Assembly: GCA_030429765.1 (NCBI GenBank)
Contig: JAUIER010000008.1
Coordinates: forward strand, 83,403 to 147,402
Length of the DNA stretch: 64,000 bases
Reading direction: 5' to 3'
Origin: a bacterium
Lineage (GTDB): Bacteria > Omnitrophota > Gorgyraeia > Zapsychrales > Zapsychraceae
Part shown: positions 4,343 through 37,309 of the stretch, one piece after another
How the letters are laid out: each line of letters begins with the position of its first letter
Position numbering within the stretch: position 1 is the stretch's first letter
Notes under the pieces: generated by a model
Databases searched by the model: none
The model's input: only the letters and a program-made list of their open reading frames with translations
Told to the model about the DNA's origin: nothing
Program-made: the position numbers and the translations under genes

Positions 4343-5160
4343 GAAGAATCCTTTTTCTGCTGGTTCTAAGCATAGTTTATCCTGTATCAGTATTTCCATC
4401 GGAAGGAAGGTATGACTCAACGGCAGAGGTGCTGCTTGATGTTAAGCTCCAAGAGGATCAAATAACGAGGGTGTATATAAGGCCTTTGTTTGCCACCAAG
4501 TTGGAAATGCCTGATCAGATCATCCGTGCTATTCCCGGGGATCAAACAGAGTCTTTGATAAAAACCGTCATCACCAAAGACCGGATGGGGATCTACATTA
4601 TTCCCGTGGCGGAGACTGGGATTACCAATCTCTTGGTCGATACCAATAATTCAAAGTTCAATTATGAAATTATTATCGGGGATGAACGGTTACTTGATTA
4701 CCGCCTTGGCAGTGCGAAGGCGAGTAGTGAATCACGATCCCCAGAGGTTCTGTCTCAGGAGTACTTACTATCTCTGGTCAATAATTATGACGTACTAAAA
4801 AATACTAATGTCATCAGTGACGGGGTGGCAGAGACAAAAAATATGATGAGTATCATTCGACGAGATGGCATTGTCTTATATACTCATCGAATACTTTTAC
4901 ATAAGAAACCACACTACTTGTGTTTTGACTTGACGGTAGAGAATGCTACGGAGTTCTCACAAGCCATAGATTTAGACAGTATCCGTGTACATATAAAGGA
5001 TCATCAATTTAAACCAAGACATAGTGTTGTCTACAGTCGGGACTTATTGCCGAATAGTCAGACAAAACTGGTTCTTGTTTTAGAGCATAGCTTCATTTCA
5101 ATACACAACGATTTCTATTTCAGTATGACAATCGGAGGTAAGAATTATGTCTTTCAATAA
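4339..5160 (+). CDS. Secreted protein, VirB9/TrbG-like by position
   Basis: Signal peptide; 273 aa; sits between the VirB8-like and VirB10-like genes. Confidence 0.3.
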   Translation: MRRILFLLVLSIVYPVSVFPSEGRYDSTAEVLLDVKLQEDQITRVYIRPLFATKLEMPDQIIRAIPGDQTESLIKTVITKDRMGIYIIPVAETGITNLLVDTNNSKFNYEIIIGDERLLDYRLGSAKASSESRSPEVLSQEYLLSLVNNYDVLKNTNVISDGVAETKNMMSIIRRDGIVLYTHRILLHKKPHYLCFDLTVENATEFSQAIDLDSIRVHIKDHQFKPRHSVVYSRDLLPNSQTKLVLVLEHSFISIHNDFYFSMTIGGKNYVFQ

Positions 5161-6055
5161 TCTATTCATTCAAGAGATAAAGCCTTCTGGGAAGCGACGT
5201 CTGACTATGCTTTCGTGGTGTTTTATAGGAGTGACGATTGCCATTGTTGTGATGTCCATGAAATCGAAACCCCTTGAGAAAAAAGACAGTAAGAATCAGG
5301 TATATGTTAATGAACAAGAACTATTGAAAGTAGTTCAAAAAAAATTAGCCAAGGAGAATGAGGTGGTAAGTATCTTTATACCGCCCGAGGCAAGCGCCGA
5401 ATTCGCACCCATCCATCAGGAAGAAATCGTGCAGAAAGGCCCACCTATTTTGTACGAGTACACAGAGGATGTACCTGTGAAAGAGGTGCCCTTCGGCAGC
5501 ATGATTAGGTGCATTTTAGTCAGCCGAATAGTAACTAACAATTTTAGTAGTCCGGTCGTCGCACAAATTGAATCAGACTTTTATTTTAATGACCAACTGC
5601 TCTTACCAGCTGGAACACGAATATTCGGGGAGGCTCGTAAAGGGATTGAGGGCGAGCGAGTCCTGGTATCATTCGGGCGGATGGTATTTCAAAAGGATGG
5701 TCAGGAAGTGGTTTTTAGCGGACGGGGAGTCAATGAAGATCTGAGCGGAGGACTTCAGGCGGTCATCGTCAATAAAACCAATAAGAAGAAAATAGCCTTA
5801 CGTATTTTGAACTTTCTGGGGGGTACGCTAATAGGGTTACAGGAGAAGGTCACTAACTCTATTACAGGAATTGATCAGATTGGAACAAGTTCCCGAAACG
5901 CGGTTTTGGAAGGGGTTGGAACAGCTTTTCATGAGGAGGCCAAACGGATTGAGCAAGAAATTGACCGGCTTCAAGGGCAGGGAATTGTCCCTGAAGGGAC
6001 GCCGTTTTATATATTTCTAGATGAACGGCTTGGGTTAGGGGGTGATGATGTCTAG
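5147..6055 (+). CDS. VirB10/TrbI-like protein
   Basis: N-terminal TM helix; C-terminal segment RVLVSFGRMVFQKDGQEVVFSGRGVNEDLSGGLQAVIVN resembles the VirB10 C-terminal barrel motif. Confidence 0.45.
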   Translation: MSFNNLFIQEIKPSGKRRLTMLSWCFIGVTIAIVVMSMKSKPLEKKDSKNQVYVNEQELLKVVQKKLAKENEVVSIFIPPEASAEFAPIHQEEIVQKGPPILYEYTEDVPVKEVPFGSMIRCILVSRIVTNNFSSPVVAQIESDFYFNDQLLLPAGTRIFGEARKGIEGERVLVSFGRMVFQKDGQEVVFSGRGVNEDLSGGLQAVIVNKTNKKKIALRILNFLGGTLIGLQEKVTNSITGIDQIGTSSRNAVLEGVGTAFHEEAKRIEQEIDRLQGQGIVPEGTPFYIFLDERLGLGGDDV

Positions 6056-6293
6056 ATTACTTAAATTGGAGAGTTTTTATGTGAATTCTACAAAAATACT
6101 AATTCGAGTAATACTTGTATTTCTTGCATTTTTGGTGGTGACCGGGGTAACTAGTGAATCCATTTCTTTCTATGAACGTTTTCAAAAACGAGCATATATA
6201 CGGATGTTCAGGATGGAGAATCCTGGGTTCATTAGTTATCGATATCTAACAGAGGCGTCCTTTATTCAAATACCACAGGAAGAAACGGAGTAG
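6042..6293 (+). CDS. Small membrane protein, hypothetical
   Basis: 83-aa ORF with one hydrophobic helix, packed between the VirB10-like and T4CP genes. Confidence 0.25.
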   Translation: MMMSRLLKLESFYVNSTKILIRVILVFLAFLVVTGVTSESISFYERFQKRAYIRMFRMENPGFISYRYLTEASFIQIPQEETE

Positions 6294-6296
6294 ATT

Positions 6297-8018
6297 ATGA
6301 AGGATTCAGACCTATTCGTTGCATTTCTCGTAACATTCATAACATGGAAACTTTTGGCGGTATTTGATGGTCTGAAGTTGACATCCGTCACCATAACACT
6401 ATTAGTAGGTGTGCTTGTGCTAGGTGGAGTCGTCCTATTTACAATCGCCCATTATATCGAACGAGCCTTGGATAGGTTGAATATGTGGCGCAATGGGATA
6501 GTTCCAGATTCAAAGAAAATGCCTTTATCATATCCGTTTAAACCATTCTGTTTGATGGAGTACTTACAACGATATTACACCGAAGGACAGAACTCAATGA
6601 GTACGTTTATTGGTTTATCTGCCGAACACCCTAAACCTAGGGAAATAACTATTCCGGATGAACAGCGATGCCAGCATTGTCAGATTATTGGGATAACCGG
6701 CTCTGGTAAAAGCGAAAGTCTGTTTTATCCTTTGATCTATCAGGATGCTTTAAAAGGCCGGCCTGTGATTATTCTCGATGCCAAGGGTGAGCTTGAAGCC
6801 GCCAATCGGATCAATGCTCTTATGAAAAATATTGGTCGGGATAAGGATTTCTATTTGTTTTCATTAACCCATAAGGATATATCGTGCTCGTATAATCCCA
6901 TTTTCGCCGGAGACTGTGATCCTCAGATTATCATAGACGCATTCTTAAATAATTTTATCGAGGAACACACATTTTTCCGAGAAACTTCCAAGACGATCTT
7001 TGAAAATACCTACATGATTCTGTATTCATTGGGTAAGCCATTTACGGTTATGGATATCTACGCATACTTGATGGATGAGAAGTGCCGTTTGTATGTCAAT
7101 GATTTGATCGACAAGGACAATGAAACGGGCAGTAAATCTTTGATGCTTCTAAATACGCTATTGAATAATCTGACTCAGCAGTACAAAGGTTGGCAGCATG
7201 TCATTACAGGCTTTGGAAACTATTTGTTAAAACATAAAGATCCAATATTTAACGACGGGGAAGGTGATATTGTTTTATCGGACATTATCCGAAATCGAAA
7301 AATTGTGTATTTTCAATTAGCAACCAATGCCTACCCGCTTCAGGCAGTGAGTGTCGCCCGTATGGTTCAGGCAAATCTACGCTATTTATCTTCACTGATT
7401 CAGTCAGGTGTGTTGTCGAAGGATATTTTGGTAAATGTCATCATTGATGAGTATGGATCACTCGCTGAAGACTCTTTTACGGAGGTTCTTAATAAGGCTC
7501 GCAGTAGCGGGATGATGGTGACCATTGCCCATCATAGTATCAGTGATTTAGCCGCAGTTTCGGAATCCTTTATGAACAGAGTGGATGAAAGTACGCTTAA
7601 CAAAATCTATTTGAAACAATCTGATCCGAAGCTATGTGAGTCGATAGCCAAGAGTCTCGGAACACATACCAAGTGGGCACCTACTTATCGAAAAATTGGC
7701 GGCCGATTCGGTAACCAAATACATATCGGGGAGTCGTCCAATAGATTGGTGAATGAATTTAACTTTTCACCAGACAAGATCAAGAGTCTTCATAAGTATG
7801 GGCAAGGATACTTTGTTTACAAGGGAGATAATACACAGGAGTGCGTAAATTTTGGTCATTTTAGAGAATTACAAAAATCACCATACAAAAAGAAATCAAA
7901 ACCGGAAAAACAAGAGGGAATCAATTTATTCGAAAAATATTGTCAGACGATGTCCGAGGATGTTGAGGATCTAGCGGAACAGTCAGTTCCAAGTTCTGGG
8001 ATAAAATTCGACGATTAG
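6297..8018 (+). CDS. Type IV coupling protein (VirD4/TraG/TraD family ATPase)
   Basis: Two N-terminal TM helices; Walker A IIGITGSGKSE; Walker B-like NVIIDEYGSL; 573 aa. Confidence 0.7.
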   Translation: MKDSDLFVAFLVTFITWKLLAVFDGLKLTSVTITLLVGVLVLGGVVLFTIAHYIERALDRLNMWRNGIVPDSKKMPLSYPFKPFCLMEYLQRYYTEGQNSMSTFIGLSAEHPKPREITIPDEQRCQHCQIIGITGSGKSESLFYPLIYQDALKGRPVIILDAKGELEAANRINALMKNIGRDKDFYLFSLTHKDISCSYNPIFAGDCDPQIIIDAFLNNFIEEHTFFRETSKTIFENTYMILYSLGKPFTVMDIYAYLMDEKCRLYVNDLIDKDNETGSKSLMLLNTLLNNLTQQYKGWQHVITGFGNYLLKHKDPIFNDGEGDIVLSDIIRNRKIVYFQLATNAYPLQAVSVARMVQANLRYLSSLIQSGVLSKDILVNVIIDEYGSLAEDSFTEVLNKARSSGMMVTIAHHSISDLAAVSESFMNRVDESTLNKIYLKQSDPKLCESIAKSLGTHTKWAPTYRKIGGRFGNQIHIGESSNRLVNEFNFSPDKIKSLHKYGQGYFVYKGDNTQECVNFGHFRELQKSPYKKKSKPEKQEGINLFEKYCQTMSEDVEDLAEQSVPSSGIKFDD

Positions 8019-24898: not shown

Positions 24899-25150
24899 AT
24901 GTTTTACGTATATGTGTTAAAAAGTAGACGGAATGGGAGGCATTATACAGGCTTCACGTCGAAAAATCCCGAGCAACGTCTTAAAGAACATAACTCGGGA
25001 TCCAATGCATACACAAAAGGAAATAGACCGTATCAATTGATTTATTGGGAACAGTACGCTGATAAATCGTTTGCATTGAAACGTGAGAAATTTCTAAAAT
25101 CTGGAGTCGGCCGAAGAGTACTAACTAGAAAACTCCAGTCTGATCTTTAA
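24899..25150 (+). CDS. YhbQ/UPF0213-like GIY-YIG nuclease-family small protein
   Basis: YVYVLKS..GRHYTGFT...R..EHN GIY-YIG motif; 83 aa. Confidence 0.7.
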   Translation: MFYVYVLKSRRNGRHYTGFTSKNPEQRLKEHNSGSNAYTKGNRPYQLIYWEQYADKSFALKREKFLKSGVGRRVLTRKLQSDL

Positions 25151-25151
25151 A

Positions 25152-25273
25152 ATTTAATCCCCGATCCCGCCAAAAAATCGTGGCGGGCTCGCCCGCCTTA
25201 AGAGTATGGTGGGCTCATCCGCCTCAAAGTTATGACGGATGATTTGGGAAAAAAATTTAATCCCCGATAGCTC
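25152..25273. repeat. ~120-bp direct repeat copy 2, running into the 5' end of tRNA-Asn
   Basis: About 98% identical to 24668-24787. Confidence 0.8.
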
Positions 25274-25336
25274 AGTTGGTAGAGCAGCTGGCTGTTAACC
25301 AGCTTGTCCGTGGTTCGAGTCCACGTCGGGGAGCCA
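25261..25336 (+). tRNA. tRNA-Asn(GUU) with encoded CCA
   Basis: TCCCCGATAGCTCAGTTGGTAGAGC...anticodon loop CTGTTAA...GGTTCGAGTCC...TCGGGGAGCCA. Confidence 0.9.
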
Positions 25337-25686: not shown

Positions 25687-25941
25687 ATGTACTATCTTTA
25701 TATTCTCAGATGTCAGAGAGGAAAGCTGTACACGGGGATTACGTCAGATATCCAACGCAGATTCAAGGAACATCGTCGTAAAAAGGCACATTTCACGTCC
25801 TACAATTTGCCAGAAGAAGTAATTTATACGGAAACTTTTCCAGACAGAAAGCAAGCCGCTAAAAGAGAACGCCAACTCAAGCGCTGGACCCGCGCCAAGA
25901 AAATGGCGTTGATTGATCGGGGAATTGTGAGTATTATTTAA
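25687..25941 (+). CDS. Second YhbQ-like GIY-YIG nuclease-family small protein (paralog)
   Basis: YYLYILRCQRGKLYTGITSDIQRRFKEH motif; 84 aa. Confidence 0.7.
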   Translation: MYYLYILRCQRGKLYTGITSDIQRRFKEHRRKKAHFTSYNLPEEVIYTETFPDRKQAAKRERQLKRWTRAKKMALIDRGIVSII

Positions 25942-28100: not shown

Positions 28101-28140
28101 CCCCATAACCCCCCGGGGCTTTGGGACCAGGTCTTAAAAA
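28101..28140 (+). repeat. Dispersed intergenic repeat, copy A
   Basis: ccccataaCCCCCCGGGGCTTTGGGACCAGGTCTTAAAAA. Confidence 0.7.
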
Positions 28141-28250
28141 CAGGGCGTCGCCTCCCAAGTATCAGCCGTATTCTTGCCGTCGGTTTTACATCTGGACGTT
28201 TATCTCAGAATGTGGCATAATCATCGTACTAATTAACCCGAGGGTTTCGC

Positions 28251-28403
28251 ATGACTTCAATCCAGCTAAAGAAAGAACTTTCAAATATTAAAAAGGCCAG
28301 AGAGCGATTACTACGGGATCGCCGTAAAGCTCGAGCCTTCTTGCGTGCCATTGGTTTGATTGATAGCAACGGTAAGCCCGTAGCTCCCCTCAAACGTAAG
28401 TAA
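28251..28403 (+). CDS. Small basic protein (50 aa), translationally coupled to the downstream ART-like gene; candidate antitoxin or partner
   Basis: Absent from the ORF track. ATG at 28251 follows a GAGGG Shine-Dalgarno and a cataat -10. Its stop TAA overlaps the next start as TAATG. The protein is K/R-rich. Confidence 0.45.
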   Translation: MTSIQLKKELSNIKKARERLLRDRRKARAFLRAIGLIDSNGKPVAPLKRK

Positions 28404-28999
28404 TGCCTACCAACATACCTTCCTTCATTATCGGCTATCATGGGTGTGATCGAGAATTAGCTGAGAAAGTCATTGCTGGAGAAACACATTTAAGAGTTAG
28501 TAAGAATCGTTATGATTGGCTGGGCAATGGAATATATTTTTGGGAAAATAATCCTTACCGAGCTTTTCAATGGGCTAAGGATCATGTTGGCAAAACAAAT
28601 GCACGGATCAAGAATCCCTACGCAATTGGCGCGGTTATCAATCCGGGTAACTGTCTTGACCTAACGGAGGCCAAGTCGATTGAATTGATCAAACAGACCT
28701 ATTCGACAATATCCGCGATTGCCGATGTGGAAAATTTTGAGTTACCTCGGAACCAGGATGTGGATGGTAGCAGCGATTTCCTAGTCCGTAATCTGGATTG
28801 TTTTGTTATCAATGCTCTGCATGAAATCAGAGAGGAAACAGAAGATCCATTTGATACGGTCCGATCGCCTTTCTTTGAGGGAAATAGATTGTATGAGGGG
28901 TCGGGATTCCGTGAAAAATCCCATGTCCAAATCTGTGTGCGAAGTTCGGCCTCAATTCTGGGGTATTTCAGGATACTTCAGAAGGATGTATTTAAATAA
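28403..28999 (+). CDS. Candidate ADP-ribosyltransferase-fold protein (PARP/diphtheria-toxin-like)
   Basis: IIGYHGC aligns with the PARP WHGS motif; LGNGIYFWEN aligns with PARP FGKGIYFADM, the NAD-binding Tyr loop. The match is motif-level only. Confidence 0.4.
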   Translation: MPTNIPSFIIGYHGCDRELAEKVIAGETHLRVSKNRYDWLGNGIYFWENNPYRAFQWAKDHVGKTNARIKNPYAIGAVINPGNCLDLTEAKSIELIKQTYSTISAIADVENFELPRNQDVDGSSDFLVRNLDCFVINALHEIREETEDPFDTVRSPFFEGNRLYEGSGFREKSHVQICVRSSASILGYFRILQKDVFK

Positions 29000-29017
29000 A
29001 ACCTTGCCCCTTAATCT

Positions 29018-29045
29018 CCAGGGAATAGTGCCAGGTCTTAAAAAT
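29018..29045 (+). repeat. Dispersed intergenic repeat, copy B (degenerate: 3' half only)
   Basis: ccagggaatagtgCCAGGTCTTAAAAA. Confidence 0.45.
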
Positions 29046-29129
29046 AAAGGCGTGGATGCCTACTAAGCTAGGATAATTAAGCGATCTGATTCTACATCTT
29101 GCGGATAGCATAGAGAGGATTTATTTATA

Positions 29130-29927
29130 ATGAAATCAGCTTGGTTAACGGATATACATCTAAATTTTCTTAAAGACAGGCAAGTGAAGGGATTTCTAAA
29201 CGCGCTTGGAAAGGAGTCGGCGGATAATTATCTTATTTCTGGCGACATTGGAGAGGCTGACAGCGTAATTAAGTATTTAAAGCTGCTTGATTCAATCTTA
29301 GATAGACCCGTATATGTAGTTTTGGGTAATCATGATTTTTATAAGGGGTCAATAGAAGTCGTACGAAGCGAGTTGTCTGAGTATGTAAATCATTCCCGCA
29401 ATATTGTCTGGATGAACAAAATAGAGTTTATTGAGCTGACCGATAAGACGGCCTTGATTGGGCATGATTCATGGGCGGACGGTAGGATTGGAGATTTTTA
29501 TGGCAGTATGGTTGAATTAAATGATTTTCATCTAATCGACGAATTGAAATTGAAAGGCAAGGCGGCAAGGATTGAGGCCATGCAAAAATTGGCTGACGAG
29601 GCTGCAGATCACTTTAAACAAAATCTTCCAAAGATATTAAAGCGCTTTCAAAATGTTATTGTGCTTACTCACGTTCCACCTTTTAAAGAAGCGACATGGC
29701 ACGAAGGGAGTACGTCTGGTGATGATTGGCTGCCGTTTTTTTCAAGTCGGATTGTCGGAGATGTTTTGAAGCGTATCATGAATACGCATCCGGATCACAA
29801 CATGACTGTGCTTTGCGGACACACGCATAGTTCGGGTAAGTGTCAAATTTTGCCTAACCTAAAGGTTTTAACGGGAGGGGCAGAATATGGGATACCTGCC
29901 ATACAGCAAATTCTGAACATAACCTAG
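29130..29927 (+). CDS. Calcineurin-like metallophosphoesterase
   Basis: D..H, GD, GNHD and GHTH motifs (LISGDIG, VLGNHDF, CGHTH). Confidence 0.7.
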   Translation: MKSAWLTDIHLNFLKDRQVKGFLNALGKESADNYLISGDIGEADSVIKYLKLLDSILDRPVYVVLGNHDFYKGSIEVVRSELSEYVNHSRNIVWMNKIEFIELTDKTALIGHDSWADGRIGDFYGSMVELNDFHLIDELKLKGKAARIEAMQKLADEAADHFKQNLPKILKRFQNVIVLTHVPPFKEATWHEGSTSGDDWLPFFSSRIVGDVLKRIMNTHPDHNMTVLCGHTHSSGKCQILPNLKVLTGGAEYGIPAIQQILNIT

Positions 29928-29953
29928 AGCGTGCGGTAAGTCTAACCCGCCCC

Positions 29954-29990
29954 CCGGGGCTTTGGGCCCAGGGGTTAGTTGAAGATTGAT
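29954..29990 (+). repeat. Dispersed intergenic repeat, copy C (degenerate), followed by the AGGGCGCTGACCCCT hairpin
   Basis: cccgCCCCCCGGGGCTTTGGGCCCAGGGGTTAG. Confidence 0.5.
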
Positions 29991-33670: not shown

Positions 33671-33965
33671 GCAGGCCGACGCCCAACATAGTTCCTGTCT
33701 ACGCCCTATTCGGAAGTTCTATCATGTCTACCAATCGCTTTGGGGGGTGGGGGTGAGGCCTTTTTTATGGTAAGTAACCTAAAGGTCAAAGGTGAAGCCG
33801 GCGTCTCAGTTTAGATTTAAGTTATTGCTATATAATCATTTATGTATTACAAGTGTCGAATTGCAATCCTTATGATATTGAATAGTAACACTATGATAAC
33901 AAAGTGTATGATTTTGTATCTTTGTGCTAAAATACCCACAATATAATTCAAAAAAGGATTTCAAT

Positions 33966-34799
33966 ATGAGTTCATGGATATTTCAAGGAAACCCTGATAA
34001 ATTTGACGTTGATGAGTATCTCCGAAAAACCGATTATGTGTATTGGAGTGTAACATGGCCTGCGCATCAGAAACAAATGGCTATCGGGGATAAGGTATTT
34101 ATATGGCGGGCTAAAGGTAAAATGAAAGCAGTTTCGGGTTTGGTAGCTTTTGGAAGTATTGCTGAAGAATGTACTGGTAGGGATAAAGTAAAGAAGCCGA
34201 TGAAGATTTATGATTCTTTATGGAATTTAGGTCCGCAGGAAGAAGCGTCAGAAATCAAGGTTGGTGTGCAAATAACAGAAGTACGATTATCACCTGGAAA
34301 AGGTATGGTGACTTTGGATGAAATTTTATGTGACCCAGTTTTAAGTGATATGCAGATAGTCAAGGCTCGACAGGGGTCAAATTTTAGCCTTACTGAGGCT
34401 CAGTATCAAAGATTAGTTGAATTGTGGGGAAGTGTATCTGATGAGCAGATAGAATTTCAGCCAACAGGGTTATCAGTTTTAGAGGGAAAAATTTATTATC
34501 GTATTCATCGTACTAGAGAGCGTGATAGTAATATTGTTAAAAAGGCAAAAGCAGAATTTCTTAAGAAGCATGGATGTTATTTTTGTGAGATATGTAAGTT
34601 AAAGTTAGAAGAAAAATATGGGGATCTAGCTTCTGGTTTTATTGAAGCCCACCACATTAAACCTGTGAATAAAATGAAACTCGGAGATAAAACATCTGTT
34701 GATGATTTAATGATGTTGTGTCCAAATTGTCATAGAATATTACATCGAGGTGATCCAGAAGTTAATTTGGAAAAAATGAAAAATTTATTTAAAGATTAA
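33966..34799 (+). CDS. EVE (PUA-like) domain fused to HNH endonuclease; candidate modification-dependent restriction nuclease
   Basis: N-terminus WIFQGNPDKFDVDEYL...WSVTW...IGDKVFIW matches the EVE pattern. C-terminus CYFCEIC...HHIKP...CPNCH is a Cys4 HNH motif. Start moved to the ATG at 33966, which has a Shine-Dalgarno. Confidence 0.55.
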   Translation: MSSWIFQGNPDKFDVDEYLRKTDYVYWSVTWPAHQKQMAIGDKVFIWRAKGKMKAVSGLVAFGSIAEECTGRDKVKKPMKIYDSLWNLGPQEEASEIKVGVQITEVRLSPGKGMVTLDEILCDPVLSDMQIVKARQGSNFSLTEAQYQRLVELWGSVSDEQIEFQPTGLSVLEGKIYYRIHRTRERDSNIVKKAKAEFLKKHGCYFCEICKLKLEEKYGDLASGFIEAHHIKPVNKMKLGDKTSVDDLMMLCPNCHRILHRGDPEVNLEKMKNLFKD

Positions 34800-35203
34800 T
34801 GGATCATTTGTCTAAAACAAAAAGAAGTTGGAACATGTCCTTGATTAAATCAAAGGACACAAAGCCGGAAGTTATTGTACGGAGCATCGTCCATAGATTG
34901 GGATTTAGGTTTAGACTTCATAAATCTGGATTACCAGGCAGTCCAGATATAGTTCTTAAGAAATATAAAACAGTTATTTTTGTTCATGGATGTTTTTGGC
35001 ATCAGCATAAAGGCTGCAAAAGATCAAATATCCCAAAGACAAATCAGAAATATTGGATACCAAAGCTTGAAAGAAATTTAGAAAGAGATAGAATAAATAA
35101 AAGAGATTTGAAGAAAGATGGCTGGAAAGTTATTGTTTTATGGGAATGTCAGATGCGAGATCCTGAACGGCTGAAGTTGGATTTAATAAGTAAATTAATA
35201 TAG
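34799..35203 (+). CDS. vsr: Very-short-patch repair endonuclease Vsr
   Basis: DTKPE...GSPDIVL...FVHGCFWHQH Vsr signature; start overlaps the upstream stop as TAATG. Confidence 0.8.
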   Translation: MDHLSKTKRSWNMSLIKSKDTKPEVIVRSIVHRLGFRFRLHKSGLPGSPDIVLKKYKTVIFVHGCFWHQHKGCKRSNIPKTNQKYWIPKLERNLERDRINKRDLKKDGWKVIVLWECQMRDPERLKLDLISKLI

Positions 35204-35293
35204 AATTTGACATACCATACATATGTGTGGTATAAAGTTAATTGTCCCCCAGAAATCGATTCCCTTAACTAAAACTAAAGGAAAGGGGCAATT

Positions 35294-36328
35294 ATGGAAG
35301 ATCATTTTATGGCAAAATCAAACGGTTACACTGTTGGAAGTCTATTCGCAGGAATAGGAGGTGTATGTCAGGGCTTTAAGGATGCAGGCTATGATGTTAA
35401 ATGGGCCAATGAATTCGATAGTAACGCAAATGTGACTTATTCCGAAAACTTTACACATAAGTTAGATCCATCAGATATTCATGATTTAGATCCTTCTAAT
35501 TTTGAATCAGTAGATGTAATCACTTCTGGTTTTCCGTGTCAGGCTTTTTCTATCGCGGGTTATCAGCATGGATTTAAAGATGATAGAGGAAATTTATTCT
35601 TTGAGACTATGCGTTTCATAAATACTCTTAAGCCTAGAGCATTCTTATTAGAAAATGTAAAGAATTTGGTTTCTCATGATAAAGGTAGAACTTTTGAGAT
35701 TATTAAAGAAACGGTATTAGATAGCGGGTATTCTTTTGTTCCGAAAGTTTTAAATTCAATGGAATATGGAAATGTTCCGCAGACAAGAGAACGAATTTAT
35801 ATTGTTGGATTCCGAAATGAGTTCGACGATAACTCTGTTGATTTTCAATGGCCTAAAAAGATTAAGTTAGGTAAGTCAATTAGGGATGTTCTTGAAAGTT
35901 CTAAAGTAGATGATAAATATTACTACAAGAAAAGCTGTCATTTTTACAAGGAATTAAAAGCTGGAATGAAGTCACGAGATACCGTTTACCAGTGGAGAAG
36001 GGTCTATTTAAGAGAAAATAAAAGTAATGTCTGTCCAACTTTAACTGCAAACATGGGAACAGGTGGTCATAATGTTCCATTAATCTTAGATGATTATGGT
36101 ATTAGAAAATTAACTCCCAGAGAATGCGCTCGATTACAAGGGTTTAAGGAAAGTTATAAAATACCACATGAAAAGGTTTGTAATTCTCAACTGTATAAGC
36201 AGTTTGGAAATTCTGTAAGTGTTCCTGTGATTCGAAGAATAGCGAATCAAATACAGTCTCATTTAGATTTAAATGATGATGTCAAGAAGGTGGCTGTTGC
36301 AAAAGAGCTAGAGTTAGCAACGGTATAA
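35294..36328 (+). CDS. DNA cytosine-5 methyltransferase
   Basis: Motif I FAGIGG; motif IV GFPCQAFS; motif VI ENVKNL. Confidence 0.85.
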   Translation: MEDHFMAKSNGYTVGSLFAGIGGVCQGFKDAGYDVKWANEFDSNANVTYSENFTHKLDPSDIHDLDPSNFESVDVITSGFPCQAFSIAGYQHGFKDDRGNLFFETMRFINTLKPRAFLLENVKNLVSHDKGRTFEIIKETVLDSGYSFVPKVLNSMEYGNVPQTRERIYIVGFRNEFDDNSVDFQWPKKIKLGKSIRDVLESSKVDDKYYYKKSCHFYKELKAGMKSRDTVYQWRRVYLRENKSNVCPTLTANMGTGGHNVPLILDDYGIRKLTPRECARLQGFKESYKIPHEKVCNSQLYKQFGNSVSVPVIRRIANQIQSHLDLNDDVKKVAVAKELELATV

Positions 36329-36339
36329 TTTTATATTGA

Positions 36340-36378
36340 TTTAATTTAGGGCTGATACTTAACGGTGTCAGCCCTTTT
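36340..36378 (+). terminator. Intrinsic terminator after the methyltransferase gene
   Basis: GGGCTGAtacttaacggtgTCAGCCC followed by TTTTTA. Confidence 0.6.
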
Positions 36379-36418
36379 TATTTACCCTTTGTAATTAAGG
36401 TAATTATTGTTAATATAT

Positions 36419-37309
36419 ATGGAAGATAATGAAGGGCAAATATATATGACAATTGATAAGAATCAAGTTAAAAAGCTGAACAAAAAAGCTTCAAGTGTGC
36501 CAAAAGACTTTAAAGATGAGGTCACTAAGCAATTCAATATTGATATTGAGCAGGAAGCTATACAGATACAATTAGTTAAAGAGCTTGAAGATTATAATTA
36601 TGTGAAGAATAAAATTGTGAAAATAGCTGATAAATACGGCTATTACAAGGCTGATCTCCAAAAGTTTTATGACAATTATTTCTTCCGGCAAGTTTCTAAG
36701 AATATTAACTTTGACAGTGTTAATTCAGACATAATTAAAAATCTTGAGAAAGATTCTTCTATAAATTCAAATGAGTTATCATTTATTAAGTCAAAACTAA
36801 AAAATATCCTTAATAAGTCGCTATTTTTAGCGTCTATTGACGGGTTTTCAACAAATATATTGCATGTTGAATCAGGTGTAATGACCGCTAATGCTGGCGA
36901 TAGTGCTCAGTTTTTATTTTTAGGCAGAGCAATTTTAGCGGGATTTAATTGTTCTAACGTTGATGTTCGTTCTAGTAGATATGATGCAATTATTGATTTG
37001 GATGGTAAGCTATTAAAAATTCAAGTGAAAGGGATTTCTACTGGAGGAAGTATAAGTTTTAAAGATAGAGACAGAGGAGGTCAGGGGATAGATCATACTC
37101 ATCCAAGAAATGTTGGAAAAAGAATAACTAGTAAAGACTGTGATATTTTTGTAGCAGTAGATAAGCAAGTAGGTCTTTGTTATCTTGTGCCTATGGAAGA
37201 ATTTGCTGACCCATTATCCGATGATCAAGCGAAAAGTGTGAGCTTAAGTAAAGTGGAACAATACAAAGAAAATTGGGATATTATTAAGAAAGTTGCAGAT
37301 AGTATGTGA
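36419..37309 (+). CDS. Putative type II restriction endonuclease (PD-(D/E)XK-like), cognate to the adjacent C5-methyltransferase
   Basis: Position directly after the methyltransferase; YDAIIDLDGKLLKIQVKG resembles a D..D..(E/Q)xK core. The first ATG at 36419 is preferred over the tool's TTG at 36407. Confidence 0.4.
   Translation: MEDNEGQIYMTIDKNQVKKLNKKASSVPKDFKDEVTKQFNIDIEQEAIQIQLVKELEDYNYVKNKIVKIADKYGYYKADLQKFYDNYFFRQVSKNINFDSVNSDIIKNLEKDSSINSNELSFIKSKLKNILNKSLFLASIDGFSTNILHVESGVMTANAGDSAQFLFLGRAILAGFNCSNVDVRSSRYDAIIDLDGKLLKIQVKGISTGGSISFKDRDRGGQGIDHTHPRNVGKRITSKDCDIFVAVDKQVGLCYLVPMEEFADPLSDDQAKSVSLSKVEQYKENWDIIKKVADSM

Follow-up and report, generated by a model that had tools for sequence, protein, structure and literature searches.

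A CmdT-like ADP-ribosyltransferase gene and a coupled small basic partner form a candidate mobile two-gene cassette in an Omnitrophota contig

We analyzed a 64,000-nucleotide (nt) stretch of contig JAUIER010000008.1 from an Omnitrophota bacterium (hereafter the window, with positions counted from its first letter), focusing on two overlapping genes at 28251-28999 that encode a basic protein of 50 amino acids (aa) and a 198-aa protein predicted to be an ADP-ribosyltransferase (ART). A first-pass annotation of the same DNA had read this pair, together with the metallophosphoesterase gene that follows it, as a possible toxin–antitoxin (TA) or defense module. The three open reading frames (ORFs), the TAATG coupling of the first two, the basic nature of the 50-aa product and the motifs in the 198-aa product all lie where that annotation had placed them. 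The AT-rich character that it ascribed to this stretch was likewise recovered, as the GC fraction is 0.39-0.44 over 28.2-29.8 kb compared with 0.50-0.56 in the flanks on either side. The features of the locus are as follows.

28193..28221, + strand: promoter-like site, TGGACG-17 nt-CATAAT with a TG before the -10 hexamer (consensus scan)
28240..28244, + strand: Shine-Dalgarno-like GAGGG, 6-7 nt 5′ of the small-ORF ATG (sequence)
28251-28403, + strand: small ORF, 50 aa (ORF list, sequence)
28399..28403, + strand: TAATG stop/start overlap (gtaAATGcc), a 1-base overlap indicating translational coupling (sequence)
28403-28999, + strand: ART ORF, 198 aa (ORF list, sequence)
29130-29927, + strand: metallophosphoesterase ORF, 265 aa (ORF list, sequence)
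28229-28441, - strand: antisense ORF, 70 aa, regarded as spurious

The promoter-like site has an extended -10 element and lies ~30 nt 5′ of the small ORF. It is only suggestive as a candidate promoter; the consensus scan returned 5 sites in the region, with 4.0 expected from shuffles.

By homology and predicted fold, the 198-aa protein is an ART of the H-Y-E (diphtheria toxin/PARP) class, with a predicted activity dependent on nicotinamide adenine dinucleotide (NAD+). Its motifs IIGYHGC and LGNGIYFWEN correspond in the alignment to GYHG and GFY of exotoxin A, whose His and Tyr are H440 and Y470. An AlphaFold2 (AF2) model of the protein (predicted local distance difference test score, pLDDT, 91.6) drew structural matches almost exclusively from ART-fold proteins, and Foldseek ranked exotoxin A and PARP1 first, with exotoxin A at the top at a probability of 1.0. 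In this model, a helical insert of ~60 residues (90-146) separates the N- and C-terminal halves of the fold, and the predicted strands 9-16, 43-48, and 152-162 carry H13, Y45, and E159, respectively. These three residues and G14 are invariant among 32 diverse homologues, and position 57, occupied in the window by the second aromatic residue W57, is always aromatic. The putative catalytic residues, assigned from conservation and alignment, are encoded at the following positions.

28439-28441, + strand: H13
28535-28537, + strand: Y45
28877-28879, + strand: E159

The nearest characterized relative is the toxin of PD-T4-9, or CmdTAC, a toxin–antitoxin–chaperone (TAC) anti-phage system of E. coli that defends against T-even phages. 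CmdT, an exotoxin-A-like ART whose triad is HY-[E/D/Q] and whose catalytic tyrosine is Y41, ADP-ribosylates adenine at N6 within GA dinucleotides of single-stranded mRNA (PMC9519451; PMC11618068; bioRxiv 10.1101/2024.02.24.581848). The PADLOC model PD-T4-9_A matches the 198-aa protein at E = 9e-9 and 2.8e-5, the main model covering only residues 9-61. As a reference we used a depositor-annotated CmdTAC operon from Vibrio phage 10N.286.54.F9_PE001 (locus L158), whose proteins match PADLOC at E = 1e-78 (A), 5e-16 (B), and 2e-51 (C). When a profile of the 32 homologues was compared with the L158 CmdT in hhalign, the two aligned over 161 columns, essentially full length, at 94.2% probability and E = 1.1e-7, pairing GYHGCD with GFHACK and DWLGNGIYFW with QWLTEGFYFW, H13 with His, Y45 with Y42, and E159 with Asp. 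A phmmer search with CmdT also reaches the window protein, at E = 4e-5. The 198-aa protein is thus, on sequence grounds, a full-length remote homologue of CmdT; since identity is ~23% and the PADLOC model spans only part of the protein, it belongs to a sister family rather than to the CmdT orthologues. Because this alignment comes together with the invariant H13, G14, Y45, and E159, we regard the ART assignment that had first been proposed from the two motifs as correct. The catalytic Glu, which had still to be located, is likely E159.

Neither CmdA nor CmdC accompanies this CmdT relative. Searches of the window and of the 155 loci described below with phmmer found nothing resembling the CmdA antitoxin or the SecB-like chaperone CmdC, PADLOC gave no match to PD-T4-9_B or PD-T4-9_C, and an hhalign comparison of the small-protein family alignment with CmdA gave a probability of 0.14%, indicating that the two are unrelated.

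Curated databases describe the 198-aa protein poorly. The Pfam domain Exotox-A_cataly matches below threshold (E = 0.049, 13.6 bits, cut-off 25.9) and NCBIfam has no match, while PHROG 14664, with no function assigned, matches over the full length at E = 6e-25. The lack of a curated match above threshold would suit a catalytically dead pseudo-ART, such as PARP13 or TASOR, or a pair of chance or remnant ORFs. We find this hardly credible, as H13, Y45, and E159 are joined by ~30 further residues that are invariant across phyla, the family comprises 3,788 clusters at 50% identity (E ≤ 1e-3), both ORFs are intact, and the small one is conserved as a protein. A live enzyme of this fold might instead be a TA toxin that degrades NAD+ as a glycohydrolase or phosphorylase, in the manner of MbcT and the RES toxins, which are close structural neighbors of the 198-aa protein and whose systems are likewise two-gene modules. 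This is quite improbable, because the conserved residues are H-Y-E and not an R-E-S motif, Pfam finds no RES domain, Foldseek places exotoxin A and PARP1 first, and the sequence homology is to CmdT and exotoxin A, both transferases.

The small protein could not be placed in any meaningful family by searches of Pfam, NCBIfam, PADLOC, PHROGs, and PDB. The window copy has an isoelectric point (pI) of 11.8 and a net charge of +11.5, and across its family the median pI is 10.3, with values above 9 in 80% of members. Its AF2 model (pLDDT 80) contains alpha-helices at residues 3-22 and 24-33, after which come a turn flanked by Gly and a tail. Near the C-terminus the family shares the motif A..FL..xG(I/L)....G.(L/V)...(Y/L)(R/K), which takes the form A..FL..AG(I/L)....G.L...YR in the genomic loci, and a hidden Markov model (HMM) of the family matches the window ORF at E = 1.3e-15. 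One local profile match to PDB (E = 0.012) compares EKRREFLKAFGLVDSNGKPSA, the C-terminal residues 198-232 of the Rift Valley fever virus nucleocapsid (3lyf_A), with RKARAFLRAIGLIDSNGKPVA (window 28251-28400); it is taken as chance, probably a helix-Gly-turn motif that arose by coincidence.

In order to follow the two genes beyond the window, six frames were searched with an iterated HMM in 155 loci from genomes, viral contigs, plasmids, and metagenomes, which together hold 161 ART copies. An ORF of 45-65 aa lies nearly always directly 5′ of the ART gene in the 80 loci from species-representative genomes. The small-protein HMM gave 143 matches in the 155 loci, 141 of them directly 5′ of an ART gene on the same strand, and by this measure 142 of 161 ART copies are paired; several of the remaining ART copies show a divergent small-protein motif by eye. 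Junctions between the genes (n = 67) fall mostly between -3 and +4 nt, and the categories include 4-nt overlaps (17), 1-nt overlaps (11), and 3-nt gaps (13). Therefore, the TA-like geometry that had been noticed at a single locus is a conserved property of the family, and the sequence evidence establishes the 50-aa ORF as a real gene co-conserved with the ART. The antisense ORF overlapping it is best taken as spurious, as already suspected, because the sense ORF is conserved as a protein across ~140 loci.

Variations on this arrangement are few. In a single locus, a viral contig (L139), the small-protein homologue (5529-5732) sits 3′ of the ART gene (4980-5516). A locus of the human gut bacterium Segatella copri (L052) carries three tandem small-ORF/ART pairs within 5 kb (1958-2724, 5643-6408, and 6425-6568, the third cut by the locus end), which suggests expansion of the cassette into paralogues. 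Extended ART representatives are explained by read-through, insertions, or unrelated C-terminal fusions. A 692-aa protein (P0508) begins with an ART domain and continues into a stretch with many RHS-like YD repeats, and a 307-aa protein (P0374) and others like it carry an insertion of ~100 aa inside the ART domain.

The pair is patchily distributed and mobile, occurring on plasmids, in prophages, and at variable chromosomal sites with diverse flanks. The phyla that encode the ART include Verrucomicrobiota, Planctomycetota, Bacteroidota (among them the gut Segatella), Bacillota, and Pseudomonadota. It was found on 72 plasmids, 36 of them conjugative and with carriers that include plant pathogens and rhizobia, where its neighbors include par and tra genes as well as other TA genes. 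It also occurs on 68 viral contigs, some as large as 100-150 kb. RefSeq labels both genes ‘hypothetical protein’. No third gene recurs among the 131 nearest neighbor genes of 70 genomic loci; these neighbors represent 154 Pfam families, often housekeeping ones, and even the commonest, phage integrase, accounts for only 4 of 131.

The metallophosphoesterase was examined as a potential third component, since the first-pass annotation had cast it as an enzyme that might process or undo the ART modification. The 265-aa protein is a bona fide calcineurin-like metallophosphoesterase with all active-site motifs (Pfam Metallophos, E = 4.6e-11), from a very large family of 265-aa proteins (>6,000 matches) with generic annotation. 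Its gene (29130-29927) begins 131 nt 3′ of the ART gene on the same strand; the low-GC stretch includes both genes, and the gap between them has no convincing terminator. Relatives of the protein often occur in TA- or defense-rich neighborhoods. These relatives adjoin varied modules, namely HEPN/MNT with TacA, SMODS/CBASS with HipBA, and an OLD-type ATPase with AbiEi/AbiEii; the gene may itself be an accessory or defense-island gene. Among the loci examined, linkage to the ART is nonetheless confined to the window. No phosphoesterase homologue was found in the 83 other genomic ART loci or in the 70 viral and other loci (153 in total), and five phosphoesterase-centered loci (L160-L164) contain neither the ART nor the small protein. 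Of the two nearest ART relatives examined, ~65% identical, the one with enough flanking sequence (L085, 65% identical) has a GDSL lipase in the corresponding position, while the contig of the other (L086) ends just past the ART gene. The phosphoesterase gene is also set off from the ART gene by a degenerate copy of the repeat and by a ribosome-binding site of its own, PADLOC has no match for it, and RNA-adenine ADP-ribosylation of the CmdT type has so far been described in the literature as irreversible. Reversal by the phosphoesterase is therefore largely refuted by the absence of co-occurrence, and we judge a three-gene module very improbable. On the sequence evidence, the phosphoesterase is an independent accessory gene and the trio a local coincidence of two accessory insertions.

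A dispersed repeat of ~45 nt, consensus ACCCGCTnCGCAACCCCCCGGGGnTTTGGAACCAGGTCTTAAAA, had been thought to bracket these genes. Copies do flank the islet, but the repeat is spread across the whole window (8 copies, all on the + strand, with 0.01 expected by chance) and is not specific to the islet.

28111, 29952, 32361, 38593, 45571, 46523, 51490, 56659, + strand: repeat copies

The copies nearest the ART pair span 28109-28136 and 29950-29977, with a degenerate copy at ~29010-29044. An exact 14-mer, CCAGGTCTTAAAAA, directly flanks the pair at 28127-28140 and, within the degenerate copy, at 29031-29044. Four copies that were checked (28111, ~29031, 29952, and 38593) lie 25-90 nt past the stop codons of + strand genes. 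In a test for terminators or structured RNA, the RNA of the flanking copies was no more stably folded than shuffled controls (z = -0.8 to +1.5), and the repeat has no Rfam match. It is a general intergenic repeat of the window and not a delimiter of the islet.

We consider that 28193-28999 is probably a self-contained, horizontally mobile, type-II-TA-like two-gene module made up of a CmdT-like ART and a coupled basic partner. For its toxicity, its neutralization by binding, its target, and its trigger we reason from CmdTAC and from TA systems at large. The small protein would bind the ART and hold it inactive as a stoichiometric inhibitor, possibly aiding its folding as well, and may bind the promoter in autoregulation. 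Once the small protein was lost or outcompeted, free ART would ADP-ribosylate an essential target and growth would stop. Possible triggers are plasmid loss, proteolysis, and phage infection. With CmdT as a guide, the most likely target would be a nucleic acid, for instance mRNA.

Several observations weigh against a toxin paired with its antitoxin. CmdT by itself is reported to be non-toxic and requires CmdA for folding and activity (CmdTAC papers cited above), so a helper role is not separable from an antitoxin role. The partner is strongly basic, whereas the sole CmdA examined (L158) is acidic by eye, and a protein of this kind could therefore be a nucleic-acid-binding regulator or cofactor instead of an inhibitor. 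The window copy also departs from its family at the consensus Tyr-Arg, where it has Leu and a KRK tail, and no natural fusion of small protein and ART was found among 136 small-protein matches. On the toxin side, exotoxin A is only marginally similar in sequence (E about 0.08-0.1), and a family-profile search of PDB sequences did not strengthen that link; its sole result, a terminal uridylyltransferase match (E = 0.03), was discarded as spurious. Finally, the neighborhoods of the pair show no clear defense-island enrichment, with defense genes only sporadic.

The main rival is a pair that is not a TA system at all, in which the basic protein is a positive cofactor, targeting subunit, or transcription factor that recruits or activates the ART. 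The ART would then be a regulated modifier, serving phage host takeover, counter-defense, or plasmid- or phage-encoded modification of host RNA or DNA. The high pI that prevails in the partner family, the need for CmdA before CmdT becomes active, the occurrence of the pair on many viral contigs, including those of 100-150 kb, and the presence of related ART domains in phage-injected or polyvalent proteins all speak for this explanation. Even so, we think it unlikely. Addiction or abortive-infection cassettes typically show this gene order, size, and overlap, and this spread over plasmids, prophages, and chromosomal sites between housekeeping genes. The nearest characterized homologue is a real abortive-infection toxin, and the small protein gave no sign of a DNA-binding fold.

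A broader proposal, possible rather than probable in our estimation, is that the family represents a large, unnamed, chaperone-independent branch of CmdT-type enzymes in which a ~50-aa basic family replaces CmdA and the SecB-like sensor, and which bacteria, plasmids, and phages use in conflicts between mobile elements. The small protein might then act as antitoxin, folding helper, or nucleic-acid-binding specificity factor, and the target of the ART may differ from the mRNA GA sites of CmdT.

In the window, the pair has a GNAT gene on one side and the phosphoesterase on the other, with a monomeric isocitrate dehydrogenase gene beyond. A tRNA-Asn lies 3 kb from the ART pair and a restriction-modification cluster 5 kb away. 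This restriction-modification or modified-DNA-like cluster (33924-37309, GC 0.31-0.40) encodes an EVE-HNH protein, a Vsr mismatch endonuclease, a Dcm-type C5 cytosine methyltransferase, and a PD-(D/E)XK endonuclease. Two paralogous ORFs of ~83 aa, GIY-YIG-like by eye, occupy 24899-25150 (MFYVYVLKS...) and 25687-25941 (MYYLYILRC...), flanking the tRNA-Asn (25261-25336) at the start of a variable-GC stretch.

The suggestion that the module is undescribed stands in part. The toxin falls in the known CmdT lineage, while the partner family and the two-gene architecture differ from it, and literature searches with the RefSeq accessions of the plasmid homologues, for CmdT-like systems, and for NetFlax with ART retrieved no description of the small-protein/ART pair. 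The novelty relative to that literature thus lies in the order of the two genes, in the family to which the partner belongs, and in chaperone independence. A sister family much larger than CmdT itself moves in two-gene cassettes whose other member is a different and unannotated protein. If the ART proves toxic and can be neutralized by the small protein, a new antitoxin family would be added, ADP-ribosylation of nucleic acids in defense or addiction would extend to systems that do not depend on a chaperone sensor, and two RefSeq sets of hypothetical proteins could be named. The idea of the phosphoesterase as an eraser is removed as a misleading lead.

To our knowledge, no ART other than CmdT is yet known to ADP-ribosylate bases in mRNA, and work on CmdT has been confined to the three-gene TAC architecture. 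The window cassette resembles CmdTAC in having as its toxin a stand-alone exotoxin-A-like ART of ~190-200 aa with an HY-[E/D/Q] triad, in a small partner predicted to start with two alpha-helices, as reported for CmdA, and in being carried by mobile elements. It differs in that the gene order is reversed, with the partner 5′ of the toxin where the CmdA gene lies 3′ of CmdT, and in that the partner is basic, ~50 aa long, and lacks both the long chaperone-addiction (ChAD) tail and the C-terminal Ala-Ala. The SecB-like CmdC is absent from the cassette throughout the locus set.

Exotoxin A, diphtheria toxin, and PARP share the aligned GYHG and GxY motifs with the window ART. Unlike the secreted toxins, this 198-aa protein has no translocation or receptor-binding domains and is predicted to be the intracellular product of a two-gene cassette, and its ~60-residue helical insert sets it apart from all three. 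RES-Xre, ParST, MbcTA, and NatRT are two-gene TA modules whose toxins have a distant ART fold, so the link to them is at the level of fold only. RES-type toxins mostly degrade NAD+, and ParT modifies Prs. In Pfam searches at E ≤ 1, the window ART has neither a RES domain nor the R-E-S motif, and its partner is not of the Xre, DUF2384, or MbcA type. DarTG, in which an ART toxin also forms part of a TA and anti-phage module, modifies nucleic acid, as would be expected of the window ART. The pair lacks the macrodomain or NADAR antitoxin of that system, and its proteins belong to none of the DarT (DUF4433), macrodomain, or NADAR families. DarTG neutralizes its toxin by enzymatic reversal of the modification, whereas the window pair presumably does so by stoichiometric binding.

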